Shown: positions 1,808 through 41,437, counted from the first letter of the stretch. The stretch: DNA of 44,578 nucleotides from an uncultured Candidatus Saccharibacteria bacterium (GCA_964476325.1 CAYYYM010000001.1:1-44578), one strand, 5' to 3'. Made by a program: numbers and translations. Notes: a model not told the origin generated them from the letters alone.

Positions 1808-4270
1808 TCAAAATGATGCGACGTCGACGACGTGGTCACCGGAATCCAGGCGCATCAGGCGCACGCCCTGCGTATCCCTGCCCGCCGTCTTGATTTTCTT
1901 CGGGTCAAGCTGGATGACGTTCCCCTTCGCCGAAAACGCGATGACGCCCTCCGTCTCGGGCCGGATGAGCTCCGCCGAGGCGATGGGACCCGTTTTCGCC
2001 GTCACCTTCGCCGTCTTCACTCCCCCGCCGCCGCGCCGCTGCACCTTGTAGTAGCGCAGCTCGGTCTGCTTACCGTAGCCGTTCTCGGTCACGATGAGGA
2101 GCTTCAGCTTGCTCGCCCCGCCACTTTTTATTATACCAACTCCGGCAACCGTGTCGTCACCCTTCAGCTTCAGCGCCACGACGCCGGCGGCCGTCCGCCC
2201 CATCTCCCGCACGTCGCTCTCCTTGAACCGGATAGCCTGCCCCTTGCGCGTCACGCAGACGACTTCCCCGCCGCCGTCAGACGTCTCAACCCACCGGAGG
2301 AGGTCGCCGCTCTTGAGCGAAATCGCCGCGATGCCGCCCCGGCGCACGTTCCGGAACTGTTCCAAGCCGGTCCGCTTCACGATGCCGCGGCTCGTCACCA
2401 TCGTGAGGTACGTCTTGCTCACGTCCGTGTCGTGCGGAAACGCGATGAGGGCAGTGATTGACTCATTTTCCGGTATCTCCAGGAAGGATTGCACGAGCTT
2501 CCCCTTCGAGGTGCGGCTTGAGGCGGGCACTTCGTACGCCCGCGTCCGGTACACCTTGCCGCCCTGCGAGAAGAAGAGGAGGTCGTCGTGCGTGTTCGCG
2601 ACGAAGAGCTGCGCGACGGCGTCCTTGTCCTTCAGCGCGGAGGCGCGCAGGCCCCTGCCGCCCCGCCCCTGGGTCTTGAAGCTCTCGGGCGGCATCCGCT
2701 TGATGTATCCGTCCTTCGTGAGGAGTATCACGACGTCCCGCTTCTCCACGAAATCCTCGTCATTGAATTCCCCGACGCCGCCCCGCTCGATGCGCGTCCG
2801 GCGCGCGTCCGCGTACTTCCCCTTGATTTCTTTCAGCTCTTCCACGAGCACCTCCCGGATGCGCTCCTTACTCTTCAGGATCGCCTCCAGCTCCTTGATG
2901 AGTTTCTTCTTTTCCTTCAGCTCGTCTTCGATTTTCTTGCGCTCCAGGGACGCCAGCGTCTGCAGACGCATCTCAAGGATGGCATCCGCCTGCACCGGCG
3001 TCAGCTTGAACTTCTTCACCAAGTTCGCGTGGGCGTCGGCGCGGTCCTCCGATTTCTTGATGGTCGCGATGACCGCGTCGATGTCGTCCAACGCCTTCAC
3101 GAGCCCCTCCAGGATGTGCGCCCGCTCCTTTGCCTTACCGAGGTCGAACTCGGTGCGGCGGCGGACGACGTTCTCGCGGTGCGCGAGAAACGCTGCGAGG
3201 ATGTCTTTCAGCGACACGACGCTCGGCTGGATGCCGTCCTTCAGCGCCACCATGTTGAAATAGAATTTCTTCTGGAGCTCCGTGTGCCGGAAGAGATAGT
3301 TCACGATGCGCTGGGGTATCGTCGCGGACTTCAGGTCTATCACGATGCGCATCCCCTCGCGGTCCGACTCGTCCCGAATGTCTTTGATACCTTCCAGCTT
3401 CTTGTCCTGCACGAGTTCCGCGATTTTCGTAATCAGGTTCGCCTTCACGACCTGGTACGGTATTTCGGTAATGACGATGCGCGGCGCCCCCTTCACCTCT
3501 TCCACGTCCACAAGCGCCCGCACGGTCACGCTCCCTCGCCCCGTCGCGTACGCCCGCTCGACGTCCCCCTCGTCGTGAATCGTGCAGCCGGTCGGGAAAT
3601 CGGGCCCGGGGAGCTTCTTCATCAGCTCCTTCACGCTCGCGTCGCCGTGCTCCGCGAGGTACTGGAGCGTGTCAATCGTCTCGCCGAGGTTGTGCGGCGG
3701 GATGGAAGTCGCCATGCCGACCGCGATGCCGAGTGTCCCGTTCACGAGGAGATTCGGGAACGCGGAGGGGAGATACACCGGTTCTTTCCGCGTGTTGTCA
3801 TAGTTGTACGTCCAGTCAATCGTCTCTTTCTCGATGTCGCGGAGCATCTCCTCGCCGATGGCGGTGAGGCGCGCTTCCGTGTACCGCATCGCCGCGGGCG
3901 GGTCGCCGTCGACCGAGCCCCAGTTTCCCTGCCCCTGTATGAGCGGATTCCTAAGGGAGAAGTCCTGCGCCATGCGCGCGAGGGCATCGTACACCGCACT
4001 GTCGCCGTGCGGGTGATACCGCCCCAGGACGGCGCCCACGACGTTCGCCGATTTGCGGAACCGGGCGTTGTGTGTCAGGCCGTCGTCCCACATCGCCCAG
4101 AGGATGCGGCGCTGGACCGGCTTCAAGCCGTCCCGGATGTCAGGCAGCGCGCGCGCGACGATGACGGACATCGCATAGTCAAGATACGATTCCTCGAGTT
4201 CTTCGGTGATTTCGCGCGCTTCCGGCTCCCGCTTCACCTCCACTACCTCGTTGTCTTCTTTCTTCGCCAT
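1808..4270 (-). CDS. gyrA: DNA gyrase subunit A
   Basis: 820 aa; [40 protein letters not shown], and a long C-terminal repeat (beta-pinwheel-like) region. Confidence 0.97.
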
Positions 4271-4271
4271 A

Positions 4272-4643
4272 TTAAAACGTATACTCGTACTGTTTCCCTT
4301 CCACCAGCTTCCGCACGCCGTCTATCGCGCGACTCACCCCCGAACCGACCCAGCGCGCGATCCGCTCCACGCCCCGCGTAAACGTCTCAATCACGCCGCC
4401 TTCCGGCTCTCCGGCAGCCGGCTCGGCGGGCGGGCTGACCAGTTCAACGGTACTCTCCTGCCCCGCCGCGCGGCCGACGAGCGGCGCGACTTCCGAGTTC
4501 ATATACCCGATCCACGCCGTGACGAGCACCACGGCGGCAATCGCCGTCGCCGCGACGAGCCACCGGCGTTTCCTCCCCTCATCCGCCTTCCGGAGGATGC
4601 GTAAGCCGCGCTTTAGGCGGTCCATTAGATTCAGGTAAGACAT
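4272..4643 (-). CDS. hypothetical single-pass membrane protein
   Basis: 123-aa ORF with a basic N-terminus then the TM helix [20 protein letters not shown]. Its stop is 1 nt before the gyrA start, and its start overlaps the upstream gene by 13 nt. No recognisable motif. Confidence 0.45.
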
Positions 4644-5194
4644 CGCAGCTGCATACTTCCCTTTTCCAGGTCGCTCTTCTTGAAAACGAACTTATCCTCC
4701 GCGGGGCAGGCGTCCGCGCCGAACTCCTTAAGGAATGGCTTCACGTCCTCCGTGTAGAGCGGGATGATGACGGACGGCGTGAGCTGCCGGAGCATGCCCG
4801 CCACCTCCGCCGCCGTTTCCTTGCCGCCGGGAACTGCCGCTACATCCATGTCCTGCAGGTATTCCTGCATCTCTTCCTTCGGCAGGACGGGCGTGTCCCC
4901 GAAGAGGGCGAACCGGATATCGTCGAAGCGGACGGTGTAGATGGTCCGTTCTTCGTCTCCTTCCGAGGGCACCTGCAGGCCCCGCACCCGTATGCCCCCC
5001 ACCTCGTATTCCCCGGCGTGGCGGATGACGAAAATCTGGCTCTCCTCCTTGAGGCCCGTCGGCTCGCCGCCGTCTCTCGTGAAGAGCGCAAGCTGCGCCC
5101 CCTTGAACGACCGCTCGTCCGTGGGGTCCACGAGCACCGTCGTCTTTCCCGACTGCAGTTTCAGGTATCCTGCTCCCTGGCGCGTGATAACCAT
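4631..5194 (-). CDS. MBL-fold-like protein lacking the HxHxDH metal motif
   Basis: The ORF track gives 4631..5236; I prefer the internal ATG at 5194 (MVITRQGAGYLKL). KTTVLVDP ... HAGEY ... resembles Lactamase_B_3/UPF0173 proteins, but the expected HxHxDH position reads FTRDGGEP. Confidence 0.45.
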   Translation of the reverse strand: MVITRQGAGYLKLQSGKTTVLVDPTDERSFKGAQLALFTRDGGEPTGLKEESQIFVIRHAGEYEVGGIRVRGLQVPSEGDEERTIYTVRFDDIRFALFGDTPVLPKEEMQEYLQDMDVAAVPGGKETAAEVAGMLRQLTPSVIIPLYTEDVKPFLKEFGADACPAEDKFVFKKSDLEKGSMQLRCLT

Positions 5195-16257: not shown

Positions 16258-16280
16258 TTGATGGGAACTTAGTCCCAATT
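16258..16280. repeat. 23-nt motif copy A (TTGATGGGAACTTAGTCCCAATT)
   Basis: 20/23 identical to the reverse complement of 26221..26243 inside tsaD, and 17/23 identical to 16624..16646 inside the transposase ORF (hand alignment, no gaps). Confidence 0.6.
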
Positions 16281-16286
16281 CGTGAA

Positions 16287-16310
16287 AAAATGTTTCTGCA
16301 GAAACATTTT
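16287..16310. repeat. 24-bp perfect palindrome AAAATGTTTCTGCAGAAACATTTT
   Basis: Read directly. Stem plus flanking T/A runs give it bidirectional terminator-like character. Confidence 0.9.
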
Positions 16311-16340
16311 ATCCACAAGTTCTGACCGTTTCAGAGTGTT

Positions 16341-16380
16341 TTTTGCAGAAAATGTTTCTGCAGAAACATTTTCTGCAAAA
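16341..16380. repeat. 40-bp perfect palindrome TTTTGCAGAAAATGTTTCTG|CAGAAACATTTTCTGCAAAA
   Basis: Read directly. It shares the 20-bp core AATGTTTCTGCAGAAACATT with 16287..16310. The half-palindrome is 6/20 G+C. Confidence 0.9.
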
Positions 16381-16425
16381 TTCCTTCATAAAAGTGTCAC
16401 GACAGAAACATTTTTCCTCCATTTA

Positions 16426-16434
16426 TGATATAAT
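16426..16434 (+). promoter_or_regulatory. extended -10 box TGATATAAT, 12 nt before the transposase ATG
   Basis: Sequence match to TGnTATAAT. There is no SD between it and the ATG at 16447. Confidence 0.45.
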
Positions 16435-16446
16435 CAGACAAGAATC

Positions 16447-17103
16447 ATGAGAAACTTGAAGTTTTCGGATGGTGGCATCTACCACATCTTCAACCGGGGC
16501 GTCGACAAGCGGGAGATATTTGATAACGATGCCGATCGCCTCCGCTTCATTTATACTACATTCCTCGTGAATAATGAGAGTCCTACATCCAACCTGGGGC
16601 GTGATTTCTCCCGGTTGAACCACTTGATTGAGACTAAGTTCCAATCGGTGGTACCGGTCGTGGAGATACTCGCATTCGTGCTGATGCCCAACCATTTCCA
16701 TCTCGCCGTGCGGCAGGTGAGCGAGGGGGGTGTGAGCAAGTTTATGCAAAAGCTGGGGCTTGCGTACACGAACTATTTCAACAAGCGGAATGGGCGCTCG
16801 GGAGCACTTTTCGAAGCGACGTTTCGGGCGGTGCCGGTCACGACTGACGTGCAGCTCTACGAGCTTTTCTTCTACATCCACGCCGCGAATCCGCGGGCGC
16901 TCGTGGGAGACGCCGACCCGCTCTCGTTCGTGCGTTCGTACCGGTGGAGCAGTCTGCCTGACTATCTCGGGACCGGGAACTTTCCGCGTTTCACGGAGCG
17001 GGAGTTTTTCCACCGTGAAATCGGCGACCGGCGGAAGGTCGCCGCGGAGCTCGAGTCCTGGCTGCGCGCCAATCCGCGCCCGGTTGACATCGGACCATCC
17101 TGA
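16447..17103 (+). CDS. IS200-like / REP-associated (RAYT-type) Y1 HUH tyrosine transposase
   Basis: 218 aa; GGIYHIFNRGVDKREIF, HUH motif LMPNHFHLAV, GALFEATFRAV, catalytic-Tyr motif FFYIHAANP, and YRWSSLPDYLG. This is the pattern of the COG1943/Y1_Tnp family. No tnpB is adjacent. Confidence 0.85.
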   Translation: MRNLKFSDGGIYHIFNRGVDKREIFDNDADRLRFIYTTFLVNNESPTSNLGRDFSRLNHLIETKFQSVVPVVEILAFVLMPNHFHLAVRQVSEGGVSKFMQKLGLAYTNYFNKRNGRSGALFEATFRAVPVTTDVQLYELFFYIHAANPRALVGDADPLSFVRSYRWSSLPDYLGTGNFPRFTEREFFHREIGDRRKVAAELESWLRANPRPVDIGPS

Positions 17104-25791: not shown

Positions 25792-26844
25792 ATGCGAGTA
25801 CTTGCCATAGAAACGTCCTGCGACGAGACCGCGCTCGCGCTCGTGAATTTCTCCTGTGGAGAGGAAGGGTGTGACATCGCTATCGAGGCCGAGGAGGTGG
25901 CGTCGCAGGTAGCGCTCCACCGCCCCTACGGCGGCGTCGTTCCGAACGTCGCCAAGCGCGAGCACGAGCGGAATCTGCCCGTTCTCTTCGAGCGCATTTC
26001 CGGCCGCGCCGGGTTTGACCCGAGGTCCGTCGACACGGTAGCGGTGACGGTGGGGCCGGGACTCGACCCGGCGCTCTGGGCGGGCATCACGTTTGCCGAA
26101 GAACTGCACAGGAAGCGTTTCCCACACGCGCGACTCGTCGGCGCGAACCACCTCGAGGGGCATCTGTACAGCTTTCTTTTGTCGGACTCTTTGAAGGGAA
26201 CTAAGTTGCCGCTCACCGGTGATTGGGACTTAGTTCCCTTCAAGAATGTATTCCCCGCGGTTCACCTCCTCGTCTCCGGCGGGCACACGATGCTCGTCCT
26301 CATGCGCGGCGTGAAAGAACGCACCGTGCTCGGCGAGACGCGCGACGACGCAGTCGGGGAAGCGTTCGACAAGGTGGCGCGCCTCCTGGGACTCCCGTAT
26401 CCCGGGGGACCCGAGATAGAGCGTCTTGCCTCGGCGTACCGAAAACCGCCGTCAATATCGTTCCCGGAGCCGATGGCGCACTCGGGGGACTACGATTTCA
26501 GCTACTCGGGGCTCAAAACCGCCGTCCGGTACTATCTCCGCGGACATCCGGGCGCGGACGTATCGGAGATTGCGCACGCGTTCCAGGAAGCGGCGTTCGC
26601 GCCGCTTGTCCTGAAAGCGAAGCGCGCGCTCGAGGAGTACGGCGCGGCATCACTTATGCTCTCCGGCGGCGTGGCGGCGAATCATGCGCTTCAGGAAACA
26701 TTGAAAGAACTCTGCTCCGACGAGTGTCGTTTCTTCGTCGCGCCCCTGCGGTACAATACAGACAACGCGACGATGATTACCATCGCTGCGTACGTCAACA
26801 GAATGGGGTACGAACTCCGTTCGCAGCCGAATCTCAGTTTGTAG
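25792..26844 (+). CDS. tsaD: tRNA N6-adenosine threonylcarbamoyltransferase TsaD
   Basis: MRVLAIETSCDETALAL, NHLEGHL, LLVSGGHT, GLPYPGGP, FSYSGLKT, SGGVAANH. Carries an extra segment (see repeat 26191..26243). Confidence 0.93.
   Translation: MRVLAIETSCDETALALVNFSCGEEGCDIAIEAEEVASQVALHRPYGGVVPNVAKREHERNLPVLFERISGRAGFDPRSVDTVAVTVGPGLDPALWAGITFAEELHRKRFPHARLVGANHLEGHLYSFLLSDSLKGTKLPLTGDWDLVPFKNVFPAVHLLVSGGHTMLVLMRGVKERTVLGETRDDAVGEAFDKVARLLGLPYPGGPEIERLASAYRKPPSISFPEPMAHSGDYDFSYSGLKTAVRYYLRGHPGADVSEIAHAFQEAAFAPLVLKAKRALEEYGAASLMLSGGVAANHALQETLKELCSDECRFFVAPLRYNTDNATMITIAAYVNRMGYELRSQPNLSL
26191..26243. repeat. 53-nt near-palindrome (REPIN-like doublet) inside the tsaD reading frame
   Basis: TTGAAGGGAACTAAGT (26191..26206) and ACTTAGTTCCCTTCAA (26228..26243) are perfect 16-nt inverted arms. 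The 21-nt spacer contains the palindrome TCACCGGTGA. Confidence 0.85.
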
Positions 26845-39552: not shown

Positions 39553-40559
39553 AGACGACGAAGATTGAGGTGAGTTGGGGGACGTTGTGGCAGCTGCTCC
39601 TCTTTATCGCGCTCGCCATCGTGTTCTTCAACGCCGCGGGGGTTTGGGCAGCGCTCTTCGGCGCCATCGTCATCTCGCTCGGCATCGACCCGGTCGTCGG
39701 CTTTCTCGAGAAGAAGGGGGTGCACCGGTTCTTGGGAACGCTCGCGGTCTTCATCGTCGGCATCGGCATCGTCGCGGCCGCCGTGTATTTCCTCATCCCC
39801 ACGCTCGCGGGGCAGATCGGCGCGTTTATCTCCCGATTCAACGAGATTATCGCGAAATTCTTCGGCATCGGCGTTCCCCAGTCCGTCATCGAGACGCTGA
39901 GCCAGAACATCACGCAGATATTCCAGACCGTCACGTCGGGTGACGTCGGCGGGACGATTTCCAAATTTCTGCAGAACGTCCTCTACGTCGCCGCCGCGTT
40001 CGTCATCAGCTTCTACCTTTCCATAGAGAAGGACGGACCGGAGCGGCTCATGCGCGCCATCCTGCCCGACGCGTACGAGAAAGCGGTCCTTACCGTTTTC
40101 GGCAGATTCGCGCGGAAGGTGCGCTGGTGGCTCTCCACGCAAATCGGGATGAGCCTCTTCATCGGCGTGATGGTCGCTCTCGGGATGTGGGTGCTCGGCG
40201 TGCCGTACGCGCTGACGCTCGGCGCGCTCGCCGCACTTTTTGAGCTCCTGCCGGTCATCGGCCCGGTGCTCTCCGGCGTCACCGCCTTTCTCATCGCCAT
40301 CTCGCAGTCGCCGATACTCGGACTCTACGTCGCCATTTTCTTCATCGTCCTGCAGCAGCTGGAGAACCACGTGCTTATCCCCATCGTGATGGGGAAGTCC
40401 GTCCGGGTCCACCCGGTCATCATCCTGATATCGCTTCTCGCCGGCGCGAAGGTCGCCGGCATCGCGGGCGTCGTGCTCGCCGTGCCCATGGCACTCCTCG
40501 CCCAGGAAACGTTCAGCTATTTCTCGGAGCGGAAGTCGGCACGCCGACAGCTCCTGTGA
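39549..40559 (+). CDS. AI-2E family transporter (PerM/UPF0118)
   Basis: ATGA overlap with the upstream stop. About 7-8 TM helices. LFELLPVIGPVLSGV and VHPVIILISLL are typical. Confidence 0.85.
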   Translation: MKTTKIEVSWGTLWQLLLFIALAIVFFNAAGVWAALFGAIVISLGIDPVVGFLEKKGVHRFLGTLAVFIVGIGIVAAAVYFLIPTLAGQIGAFISRFNEIIAKFFGIGVPQSVIETLSQNITQIFQTVTSGDVGGTISKFLQNVLYVAAAFVISFYLSIEKDGPERLMRAILPDAYEKAVLTVFGRFARKVRWWLSTQIGMSLFIGVMVALGMWVLGVPYALTLGALAALFELLPVIGPVLSGVTAFLIAISQSPILGLYVAIFFIVLQQLENHVLIPIVMGKSVRVHPVIILISLLAGAKVAGIAGVVLAVPMALLAQETFSYFSERKSARRQLL

Positions 40560-41395
40560 CGCCCCTTCTCGACGCACACGCGCATCCGCAGTTCCCGCAC
40601 TACGACGGGGACCGCGACGCTCTGCTCCGCCGCGCGCGGAACGCGGGCGTCGTCCGCATCGTCGCCGTCGGGACGAGCGCCGAGGACTCCCGGAAAGCCG
40701 TCGCGCTCGCGGAACGGGAACCTGACCTCGTCCGCGCGACGGTTGGGATTCACCCCGCGGAAAGGAATGAAGTTGAACTTCCTTCCATGGAAGGAAGTTC
40801 AACTTCATTCCATTGGGATTTTGTCCGCGATCTTGCGTATCACCAGCTCGTCGTCGCCATCGGCGAGTGCGGTCTGGATTACTTCCGGATAGAAGGAGGA
40901 GACGACGAAAAGTCCTACCAGCGCGAGTTGTTTTTGAAACATATCGCGCTTGCCCGGGAGGTCGGCAAGCCCTTGATGATTCATTCCCGGCCGTCGCAGG
41001 GAACGTATGACGCGTACGAGGAGATTTACGAGACACTGCGAGCGCAGCAGCCCGTACCGCGTTTCATCATGCATTTCTTCGTCTGCGATGACGTCGCGCT
41101 CGCGAACAAGTTTCTCAAGCTCGGTGCGTACTTCACCTTCGGCGGCGTGCTCACGGTCACGCACCAGTATGACGAGACGGTCCGGACGCTCCCGCTCGAG
41201 CGGCTTATGACCGAAACGGACGCACCATTCGTCACACCTCTGCAGGAGCGGGGTAAGCGCAACGAGCCCGCGTTCGTGAAATATACTTTGGAGCGCCTCG
41301 CGGAATTGAAGGAGACGGACATTGATTCCTGCGCCGCGCAGATTCTCAAAAACGCCGATTCCATATTCGAAAATTCGAAAAGGGGCTTTGATTGA
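40556..41395 (+). CDS. tatD: TatD-family metal-dependent hydrolase
   Basis: GTGA overlap with the upstream stop. LLDAHAHPQF, AIGECGLDY, PLMIHSR, IMHFF, MTETDAPF, RNEPAFV. Contains the 48-bp palindrome. Confidence 0.88.
   Translation: MTPLLDAHAHPQFPHYDGDRDALLRRARNAGVVRIVAVGTSAEDSRKAVALAEREPDLVRATVGIHPAERNEVELPSMEGSSTSFHWDFVRDLAYHQLVVAIGECGLDYFRIEGGDDEKSYQRELFLKHIALAREVGKPLMIHSRPSQGTYDAYEEIYETLRAQQPVPRFIMHFFVCDDVALANKFLKLGAYFTFGGVLTVTHQYDETVRTLPLERLMTETDAPFVTPLQERGKRNEPAFVKYTLERLAELKETDIDSCAAQILKNADSIFENSKRGFD
40764..40811. repeat. 48-bp perfect palindrome inside the tatD reading frame
   Basis: GGAATGAAGTTGAACTTCCTTCCA|TGGAAGGAAGTTCAACTTCATTCC. All 24 pairs were checked by hand; 20/48 G+C. 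The length is a multiple of three. Confidence 0.9.
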
Positions 41396-41437
41396 TTTCG
41401 GGAATCTAACAGTTGTTAGATTCCCGAAATCAATCAA
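41388..41437. repeat. hairpin with perfect 23-bp stem and 4-nt loop, overlapping the tatD stop codon
   Basis: TTGATTGATTTCGGGAATCTAAC, loop AGTT, GTTAGATTCCCGAAATCAATCAA. All pairs were checked by hand; each arm is 8/23 G+C. Confidence 0.9.

Follow-up and report, generated by a model that had tools for sequence, protein, structure and literature searches.

The tsaD gene of an uncultured Candidatus Saccharibacteria bacterium, carried on a contig of 44,578 nt (GCA_964476325.1, CAYYYM010000001.1:1-44578; this whole stretch is referred to as the window), contains a 53-nt palindrome that is translated in frame. The element is probably an inverted doublet of two units derived from repetitive extragenic palindromes (REPs), in other words a REPIN-like element, and it is read as part of a hypervariable loop of TsaD, the tRNA N6-adenosine threonylcarbamoyltransferase. 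One of the two units is a close copy of a hairpin motif located next to a gene in the same window that encodes a Y1/HUH transposase resembling REP-associated tyrosine transposases (RAYTs). Hairpins of a common consensus also accompany relatives of this transposase in other Patescibacteria.

The palindrome at 26191-26243 was first noticed in a reading of the sequence alone, made before the present analysis. Its perfect 16-nt inverted arms, the 21-nt spacer between them (TGCCGCTCACCGGTGATTGGG, which includes TCACCGGTGA) and its in-frame translation within tsaD as ..LLSDSLKGTKLPLTGDWDLVPFKN.. were all confirmed. The element consists of two units in a tail-to-tail arrangement. When the right unit is reverse-complemented (TTGAAGGGAACTAAGT-CCCAATCACC, 26 nt), it shares 23 of 26 positions with the left unit, and the inner TCACC and GGTGA fall in the same symmetry. 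The units, 26-27 nt long, are short imperfect palindromes with hairpins of the form GGGAAC-TAA-GT(T)CCC, as REP units are, and together the two inverted units form one larger hairpin, which is the architecture of a REPIN. With the addition of base 26244, the element makes up exactly 18 in-frame codons (L134-K151, LKGTKLPLTGDWDLVPFK), and a codon boundary coincides with its start. Only one of the three forward frames across the element is free of stop codons, and this is the frame of tsaD. The palindrome is far beyond chance. The 16-mer arm, with up to three mismatches, has 3 matches against 0.12 expected, and palindromes with at least 12 paired bases number 10 across the window compared with 1-2 in shuffled sequences. 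The folding energy of the region is -31.1 kcal/mol (z = -5.0). The G+C content of the element is 0.50 vs 0.63 in the rest of tsaD, and its third-position value (GC3) is 0.67 vs 0.77.

The link to the transposase is provided by the right unit. Its minus-strand 22-mer at 26222-26243, TTGAAGGGAACTAAGTCCCAAT, agrees with the hairpin at 16258-16279 in 20 of 22 positions, where 0.00 such matches with two mismatches are expected, and local alignment of the tsaD unit with this motif is significant against shuffles (p<0.003). The sequence-only reading had given the match as 20/23, which is the same alignment counted with one flanking mismatch. The gene that follows this hairpin is thus flanked by the same repeat in the same genome, as in REP/REPIN systems. 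It encodes a protein that scores 27.9 bits with Pfam Y1_Tnp (cutoff 23) and carries both the HUH motif and the tyrosine; MPNHFHL and YIHxNP are invariant across the alignment of its family. In NCBIfam, the only match listed is REP_Tyr_transpos (NF047646), at 29.1 bits, which does not reach the cutoff of 80. A profile search of the family against the PDB retrieved ISDra2 TnpA (E=0.026) and E. coli TnpA(REP) (E=0.21). The family also has a conserved C-terminal extension, YRWSSLxDYLG, and 771 homologues were found, mostly in Patescibacteria and 220-240 aa in length.

A second, degenerate copy of the motif lies inside the transposase open reading frame (ORF) itself. This copy is significantly similar to the REPs found at the loci of three relatives (L001, L020, and L021). 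In the window, in L001 (2826-2850) and in L040 (801-825), a variable stretch that precedes the HUH motif holds an internal REP, which is not present in L020 or L021. The internal copy could serve autoregulation as a binding site, or it could go back to an old REP insertion that kept the frame.

Hairpins beside relatives of the transposase share the consensus TGATTGAGnC-TnA-GnCTCAATCA. In L020 and L021 their stems are perfect and 10-13 bp long. The L021 gene has a pair of sites on either side, an intergenic cluster lies at a distance of 2 kb, and there is one further site. Because perfect hairpins with this one consensus border the transposases of these relatives, and are dispersed in one of them, it can be concluded from the sequences that a REP/RAYT-type system exists in Patescibacteria and that the copies in the window are diverged members of its REP. 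In the sister lineage L001, whose TsaD is 68% and whose transposase is 64% identical to those of the window, the orthologous sites upstream of and inside the RAYT-like gene read TTGATTGAGGC-TTA-GCCTCA. The stem has covaried, with TGAGGC/GCCTCA in the sister and TGGGAAC/GTCCCA in the window. No REP copy is found in the tsaD loop of the sister. Since the sister has the covarying variant and none in tsaD, the tsaD copy is specific to the motif variant of this genome. The tsaD doublet most resembles the upstream variant of its own genome and hence postdates the divergence from the sister lineage.

The gene order CobAT-RAYT-NusA is common to the window and L001, and the context differs in L020 and L021. 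Between the NusA gene and the cobalamin adenosyltransferase gene of L004 (8033-8705), no RAYT-like gene is found and no remnant is detected by tblastn; this interval holds only a 77-aa ORF without Pfam matches.

These observations can be arranged into a simple course of events. A unit of about 26 nt would have been copied from the hairpin motif flanking the genome's own RAYT-like transposase. By analogy with TnpA(REP) and the IS200/IS605 enzymes, this transposase presumably recognises the hairpin on single-stranded DNA and mobilises it. One doublet would then have landed in the TsaD surface loop that follows the HxEGH metal-binding helix, or taken the place of part of it. The element may have survived in an essential gene because it measures exactly 18 codons, is open in one forward frame, and lies in a loop that can take nearly every length and sequence. 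Most likely it is carried as a neutral passenger whose translation gives a disordered loop, and it would add a strong hairpin to the tsaD mRNA and to single-stranded DNA.

The properties of the protein are in line with such a passenger. Window TsaD is 37-40% identical to solved bacterial TsaDs, and it has kept all family-invariant residues. An AlphaFold2 (AF2) model has a mean pLDDT of 89.8, and residues 141-150 average 63. The sequence-only reading had raised the question of surface loop or core; in the model, the element residues form a low-confidence coil between helix 120-130 and strand 156-161, and the model superposes on E. coli TsaD (Foldseek TM-score 0.83-0.88). The predicted structure fits an element tolerated as a passenger in a surface loop. 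An example of the predicted peptide for the translated element region is GTKLPLTGDWDLVPFK.

Whether the element was inserted or exchanged depends on the loops of relatives. The earlier estimate of about 17 extra residues holds against E. coli and T. maritima TsaD, the latter alignment showing 12 + 5 = 17 extra residues at the element, but it does not hold against Patescibacteria. The segment from the HxEGH motif to SGGHT was measured in 119 Patescibacteria TsaD homologues. It ranges from 19 to 58 residues (modes 22, 30-31, and 33), and 13 of the 119 have a loop as long as that of the window or longer. The sister loop is only 5 residues shorter, and its DNA is unrelated. Homology of the element-coded peptide to the loops of relatives was tried, and alignment of the loops is not meaningful. 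Removal of 54 nt leaves YSFLLSDS-NVFPAVH, which is near the short-loop relatives, and the right flank of the element, GTATTCCCCGC, is identical in L004. On the other hand, the element may have replaced loop sequence, since most Patescibacteria loops are long and the sister has a similar loop without a palindrome. The data fit two histories equally, one in which a short loop received the element and one in which the element took over from an older, long loop. No TsaD above 68% identity, full-length or fragment, is present in the protein collection. The loops of the closest relatives are built of AT-rich repeats, which suggests that replication slippage is a second source of variation in TsaD loop length. 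In the loop of L007, CAAATTC occurs twice, and the loop of L006 has a direct repeat of AATTACGAAT.

Palindromes in tsaD are not confined to the window. Among 81 Patescibacteria tsaD loci that were fetched (L023-L103 for the loop-start hairpin described below), several carry long in-frame palindromes in variable loops, with arms of 14-26 bp, and each occurs only once in its locus. Several of them precede a (F/L)PRPM motif, and two (L040 and L062) lie in the same loop as the window element. The paired palindromes of L040 and L062 are alike (AGACGTCSGACGTCT and AGAAGTCAGACTTCT) and differ by compensatory changes.

These palindromes bring in a different origin for the tsaD element, in which a template switch or snap-back inverted duplication created the palindrome in place, possibly after a single REP-like unit had arrived, by the same process as the other unique Patescibacteria palindromes. 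Many Patescibacteria tsaD genes carry long in-frame palindromes without a second copy in the locus, and the fetched loci contain 1.46 local palindromes of 14 or more paired bases per 10 kb. In many lineages, the helix codons recur as their reverse complement in the codons that come next (YSFLL/QKKTV, ILAALL/ERGEE, and LANWL/APVGK), which is a signature of local inverted duplication. The tsaD palindromes are unique in their loci and those of L040 are unrelated to its own RAYT-linked REP, so palindromes can arise in such genes without a recognisable REP source, and L040 offers no independent replicate of a REP doublet in tsaD. A purely local origin, however, leaves unexplained both the 20/22 match to a RAYT motif 10 kb away and the fact that the match is to the motif variant of this genome and not to that of the sister. 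Because of this variant-specific match, at least one unit must either stem from the RAYT locus or have supplied the copy there. Genesis in place is considered possible but unlikely.

Several further observations, like the locus-unique palindromes and the case of L040, weigh against a REP-derived doublet. The left and right units differ by one contiguous block of 6 nt, where decay of identical REPs predicts scattered changes, and this block also speaks for duplication in place. The hairpin of a single unit is weak in this genome (5-6 bp) and no better than in shuffles. No target-site duplication or conserved target is visible, the flanks GACTCT and GAATGT having no direct repeat, and so the element lacks the combination of terminal inverted repeats with target-site duplication that defines MITEs (miniature transposable elements with inverted repeats). 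At the RAYT locus of the window the 3' REP is absent, and the 44.6 kb hold just the one doublet and the two RAYT-linked single copies. In an exact-pattern scan of the genome collection, which includes the sister genome, the sister had only its two RAYT-linked copies, and the 9 other matches were in unrelated taxa. Such a lack of dispersed copies would also be expected from local genesis. The earlier description of the element as a REPIN-like doublet thus stands as regards the inverted REP-like units, the RAYT-linked copy and the REPs of relatives. Many dispersed copies, the defining property of REPINs, are putative for this genome and are not seen in the sister. The pattern GAWGGGAACTWAGTCCCAAT had 0 matches in collections of genome and metagenome contigs, neither of which includes the window's own genome.

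A nucleic-acid structure under selection would be another reason for a palindrome at this place. The site in question is formed by the first ~36 nt after the His codon of HxEGH (26164-26199 in the window), where many tsaD genes have a hairpin with arms of 10-17 bp. In one such case the helix peptide YSFLL (TACAGTTTTCTTTTG) precedes QKKTV (CAAAAGAAAACTGTA), and other helix peptides have matching partners. Compensatory changes are seen, such as Ser AGT/Thr ACT vs Ser TCC/Gly GGA. A set of 24 LYSFLL-type tsaD genes was chosen regardless of pairing. Their 13-bp helix, whose centre lies 18.5 nt after the His codon, had 71% of its cells paired vs 41-53% when slid, and 11 of its 13 pairs had changed on both sides; 0 of 500 shuffles came up to these values. 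Of 71 genes, 18 have their strongest hairpin within 0-45 nt after the motif, where 2.8 are expected. According to this explanation, tsaD needs a loop-start hairpin, as mRNA or single-stranded DNA, which might serve translation pausing, RNA processing or protein binding, and the REP doublet is a functional replacement of the ancestral one. The window indeed lacks the loop-start hairpin, but a much stronger one begins 24 nt after the Tyr codon. Against this, 55 of the 71 genes have no strong hairpin at the site, the hairpin of the sister is degenerate with 8 paired bases, and the covariation could equally result from repeated 'correction' of the palindrome by template switching. No known RNA family matches at the site. 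A selected structure as the reason for the element is therefore very doubtful. Neither this explanation nor genesis in place accounts for the match to the transposase-linked motif, and both were for that reason ranked below the REP-derived doublet.

The same findings allow a wider picture, in which palindromic DNA, including REP doublets of about 54 nt (18 codons), would routinely serve to build or remodel the variable surface loops of conserved Patescibacteria enzymes. The loop-start hairpin of tsaD would be selected and would covary across lineages with differing helix peptides, and the REP doublet would be a functional replacement rather than a passenger. As a whole, this picture is considered quite unlikely.

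The window contains a second in-frame palindrome of similar design, in the gene for a TatD-family hydrolase. Each arm of the palindrome at 40761-40814 is a REP-like hairpin, GGAATGAAG-TTGAA-CTTCCTTCC, and at this position the TatD protein is 9 residues longer than the solved TatDs of T. maritima and S. aureus. A 12-mer, GAAGTTCAACTT, is common to this palindrome and the RAYT-linked REP of L040. The palindrome is a second in-frame REPIN-like doublet in the window. Further downstream, the TatD ORF takes its TGA stop codon (41393-41395) from a perfect palindrome at 41388-41437. The outer 8 nt of this palindrome, TTGATTGA, are identical to the REP consensus found in the RAYT relatives, and the REPs of L020 and L021 likewise overlap stop codons. 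No T-run follows it, so it is not a canonical terminator. Membership of the TatD palindromes in the same family as the tsaD element was considered and rejected, and they were not merged with it, because the similarity is not significant against shuffles.

An artefact of assembly or sequencing, in the form of a chimeric or fold-back palindrome, also has to be considered for tsaD, since the window was assembled from metagenome data. For the same organism, a separate Logan assembly (SRR9710702) exists in short contigs that end before tsaD. These contigs contain an identical RAYT-like gene and identical DksA-XerC genes, and look-ups of the TsaD and ThyA proteins gave no match. However, the segment is internal to a 44.6-kb contig, the reading frame is kept without a stop codon, a diverged and non-identical related copy is present elsewhere on the contig, and the TatD gene has a second element with the same architecture. 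Fold-back artefacts are usually long and located at contig ends. An artefact is thus highly improbable.

Table. Positions of the palindromes, genes and loops described in the text; positions refer to the window or to the locus named.
Sequence	Feature	Position	Strand	Description
Window	tsaD (tRNA N6-adenosine threonylcarbamoyltransferase)	25792..26844	+	350 aa, intact; Pfam TsaD E=3e-72
Window	Inverted doublet of two REP-like units	26191..26243	.	53-nt near-perfect palindrome
Window	Left arm	26191-26206		TTGAAGGGAACTAAGT, 6/16 G+C; exact reverse complement at 26228-26243
Window	Left REP-like unit	26191..26217	+	TTGAAGGGAACTAAGTTGCCGCTCACC, 27 nt; internal hairpin GGGAAC-TAA-GTTGCC (direct reading)
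Window	Right REP-like unit	26218..26243	-	Minus-strand TTGAAGGGAACTAAGTCCCAATCACC, 26 nt; half matching the RAYT-flanking motif
Window	RAYT-like Y1 (HUH) transposase	16447..17103	+	218 aa; HUH MPNHFHL, catalytic-Tyr YIHAANP
Window	Single REP-like hairpin	16258..16279	+	TTGATGGGAACTTAGTCCCAAT; TTGATGGGAAC-TTA-GTCCCAAT; ~170 nt 5' of the RAYT-like gene
Window	Degenerate REP-like copy inside the RAYT-like ORF	16624..16648	+	TTGATTGAGAC-TAA-GTTCCAATCGG, codes LIETKFQS
Window	54-nt palindrome, 27+27, one mismatch	40761-40814		In frame in TatD-family hydrolase ORF 40556..41395 (+); codes ERNEVELPSMEGSSTSFHW
Window	Perfect 24+24 palindrome, 50 nt	41388-41437		TTGATTGATTTCGGGAATCTAACA-GT-TGTTAGATTCCCGAAATCAATCAA; -39.4 kcal/mol, z = -11
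L020	REPs at transposase 57% identical to the window protein			CCCTGATTAGAGC-TAA-GCTCTAATCAGGG x3: just 5', over the stop codon, ~350 nt further upstream
L021	REPs at transposase 44% identical to the window protein			CTGATTGAGG-TTGA-GCCTCAATCAG x8 in 15.6 kb
L040	REPs at transposase 44% identical to the window protein			Copies at 5' flank, inside ORF, at 3' end
L098	tsaD palindrome	4785-4850		66 nt
L055	tsaD palindrome	4756-4809		54 nt
L097	tsaD palindrome	4536-4580		45 nt
L087	tsaD palindrome	4498-4538		41 nt
L040	tsaD palindromes	4201-4234 and 4388-4427		
L062	tsaD palindrome	4394-4432		
Window	tsaD loop			37 residues; loop DNA is the 53-nt palindrome
L001 (sister)	tsaD loop	10385-10425		32 residues; AT-rich ~7-nt tandem repeats AAATCCA x2, AATTTCA x2; no palindrome
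L006, L007	tsaD loops			32 and 31 residues; short AT-rich tandem/direct repeats; no long palindrome
L004, L005	tsaD loops			22 residues; short loop

The intergenic region before the RAYT-like gene has features of its own. An AT-rich stretch at 16284-16430 (L001 2500-2600), with the cobalamin adenosyltransferase gene on one side and the RAYT-like gene on the other, contains three copies of the palindrome AAAATGTTTCTGCAGAAACATTTT, which are kept in the sister. These copies may represent an array of operators or a further repeat family. The independent Logan contig L008 breaks within this array. A perfect DnaA-box 9-mer is located at 16309-16317, among the AAAATGTTTCTGCAGAAACATTTT copies. A replication origin at 16.1-16.4 kb was considered and found unconvincing, as there are two DnaA-box-like sites only and no box cluster.

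The REP/RAYT-type system of Patescibacteria combines an untagged REP consensus with a distinct clade of Y1 transposases. An essential enzyme that is conserved universally can apparently take up its palindromes and stay intact. The tsaD element, the doublet in TatD and the palindromes of further tsaD genes together suggest that in the reduced genomes of Patescibacteria protein loops commonly vary through palindromic DNA. This is relevant to the annotation, alignment and phylogeny of marker proteins of the Candidate Phyla Radiation (CPR), and to the persistence of mobile DNA in streamlined genomes. More interesting than the single element is the phylum-wide pattern of palindromic DNA in tsaD loops, of which the covarying hairpin is a part.

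For Proteobacteria and some other phyla, good descriptions of REP/REPIN-RAYT systems exist (PMC2817692, PMC3116915, PMC5581495). The Patescibacteria system resembles them (Nunvar 2010, PMC2817692; Bertels and Rainey 2011, PMC3116915; for TnpA(REP), PMC3333891 and PMC8266576) in having hairpin units that occur singly and as inverted doublets, and in having a copy that flanks a Y1/HUH tyrosine transposase gene. The transposase genes of L020, L021, and L040 are bracketed by REPs, which show intergenic dispersal in L021, and the window transposase gene is syntenic with that of the sister genome. The differences are equally clear. The units start with TTGA(A/T) or TGAT and have no GTAG/CGTC tag, the window protein is below the NCBIfam RAYT cutoff and has the conserved C-terminal extension, and the sister genome does not have a high copy number. 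In addition, the tsaD element is intragenic and in frame, whereas REPs are as a rule extragenic (exceptions in PMC3733652), and an extra REP copy lies within the transposase ORF. The RAYT surveys consulted do not mention Patescibacteria, and a search of full-text literature for the phylum together with RAYT, REPIN, IS200 or palindromic repeats returned nothing relevant.

The likeness to IS200/IS605 elements such as IS608 and ISDra2 lies in the transposase superfamily and in subterminal hairpins whose recognition takes place on single-stranded DNA. TTGAT, with which the motif starts, is the target pentanucleotide of ISDra2; this is possibly a coincidence. In contrast to these elements, the tsaD element carries no gene, and the transposase gene is syntenic with that of the sister and has no second copy in the available sequence.

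Rickettsia palindromic elements (RPEs) are inserted in frame in unrelated conserved genes at positions compatible with the fold (reviewed in PMC10969869). The likeness to the tsaD element is functional only, namely in-frame insertion in a tolerated loop. RPEs are ~100-150 bp long and form defined Rickettsia families, each with a conserved peptide, whereas the tsaD element has 53 nt, and no linked RAYT-type gene is needed to define RPEs.

The sequence-only reading was right that in-frame palindromic insertions are known in Rickettsia, but they are not confined there. Intragenic REP dimers encoding ~20-30 aa have been described in frame in housekeeping genes of several phyla (Di Nocera et al. 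2013, PMC3733652), with targets including DNA repair genes and tRNA synthetases, and the resulting proteins are presumed functional. Those dimers are made of GTAG/CGTC REPs in Opitutus, Rickettsia, Thauera, and others, and the present case differs in phylum, REP type and target gene. An in-frame REP dimer is therefore a known type of event, although the searches made brought up no report of one in the ultra-small Patescibacteria. What sets the present case apart is an untagged REP, a transposase clade below the RAYT cutoff, a REP inside the transposase ORF, the phylum, and tsaD as the target.

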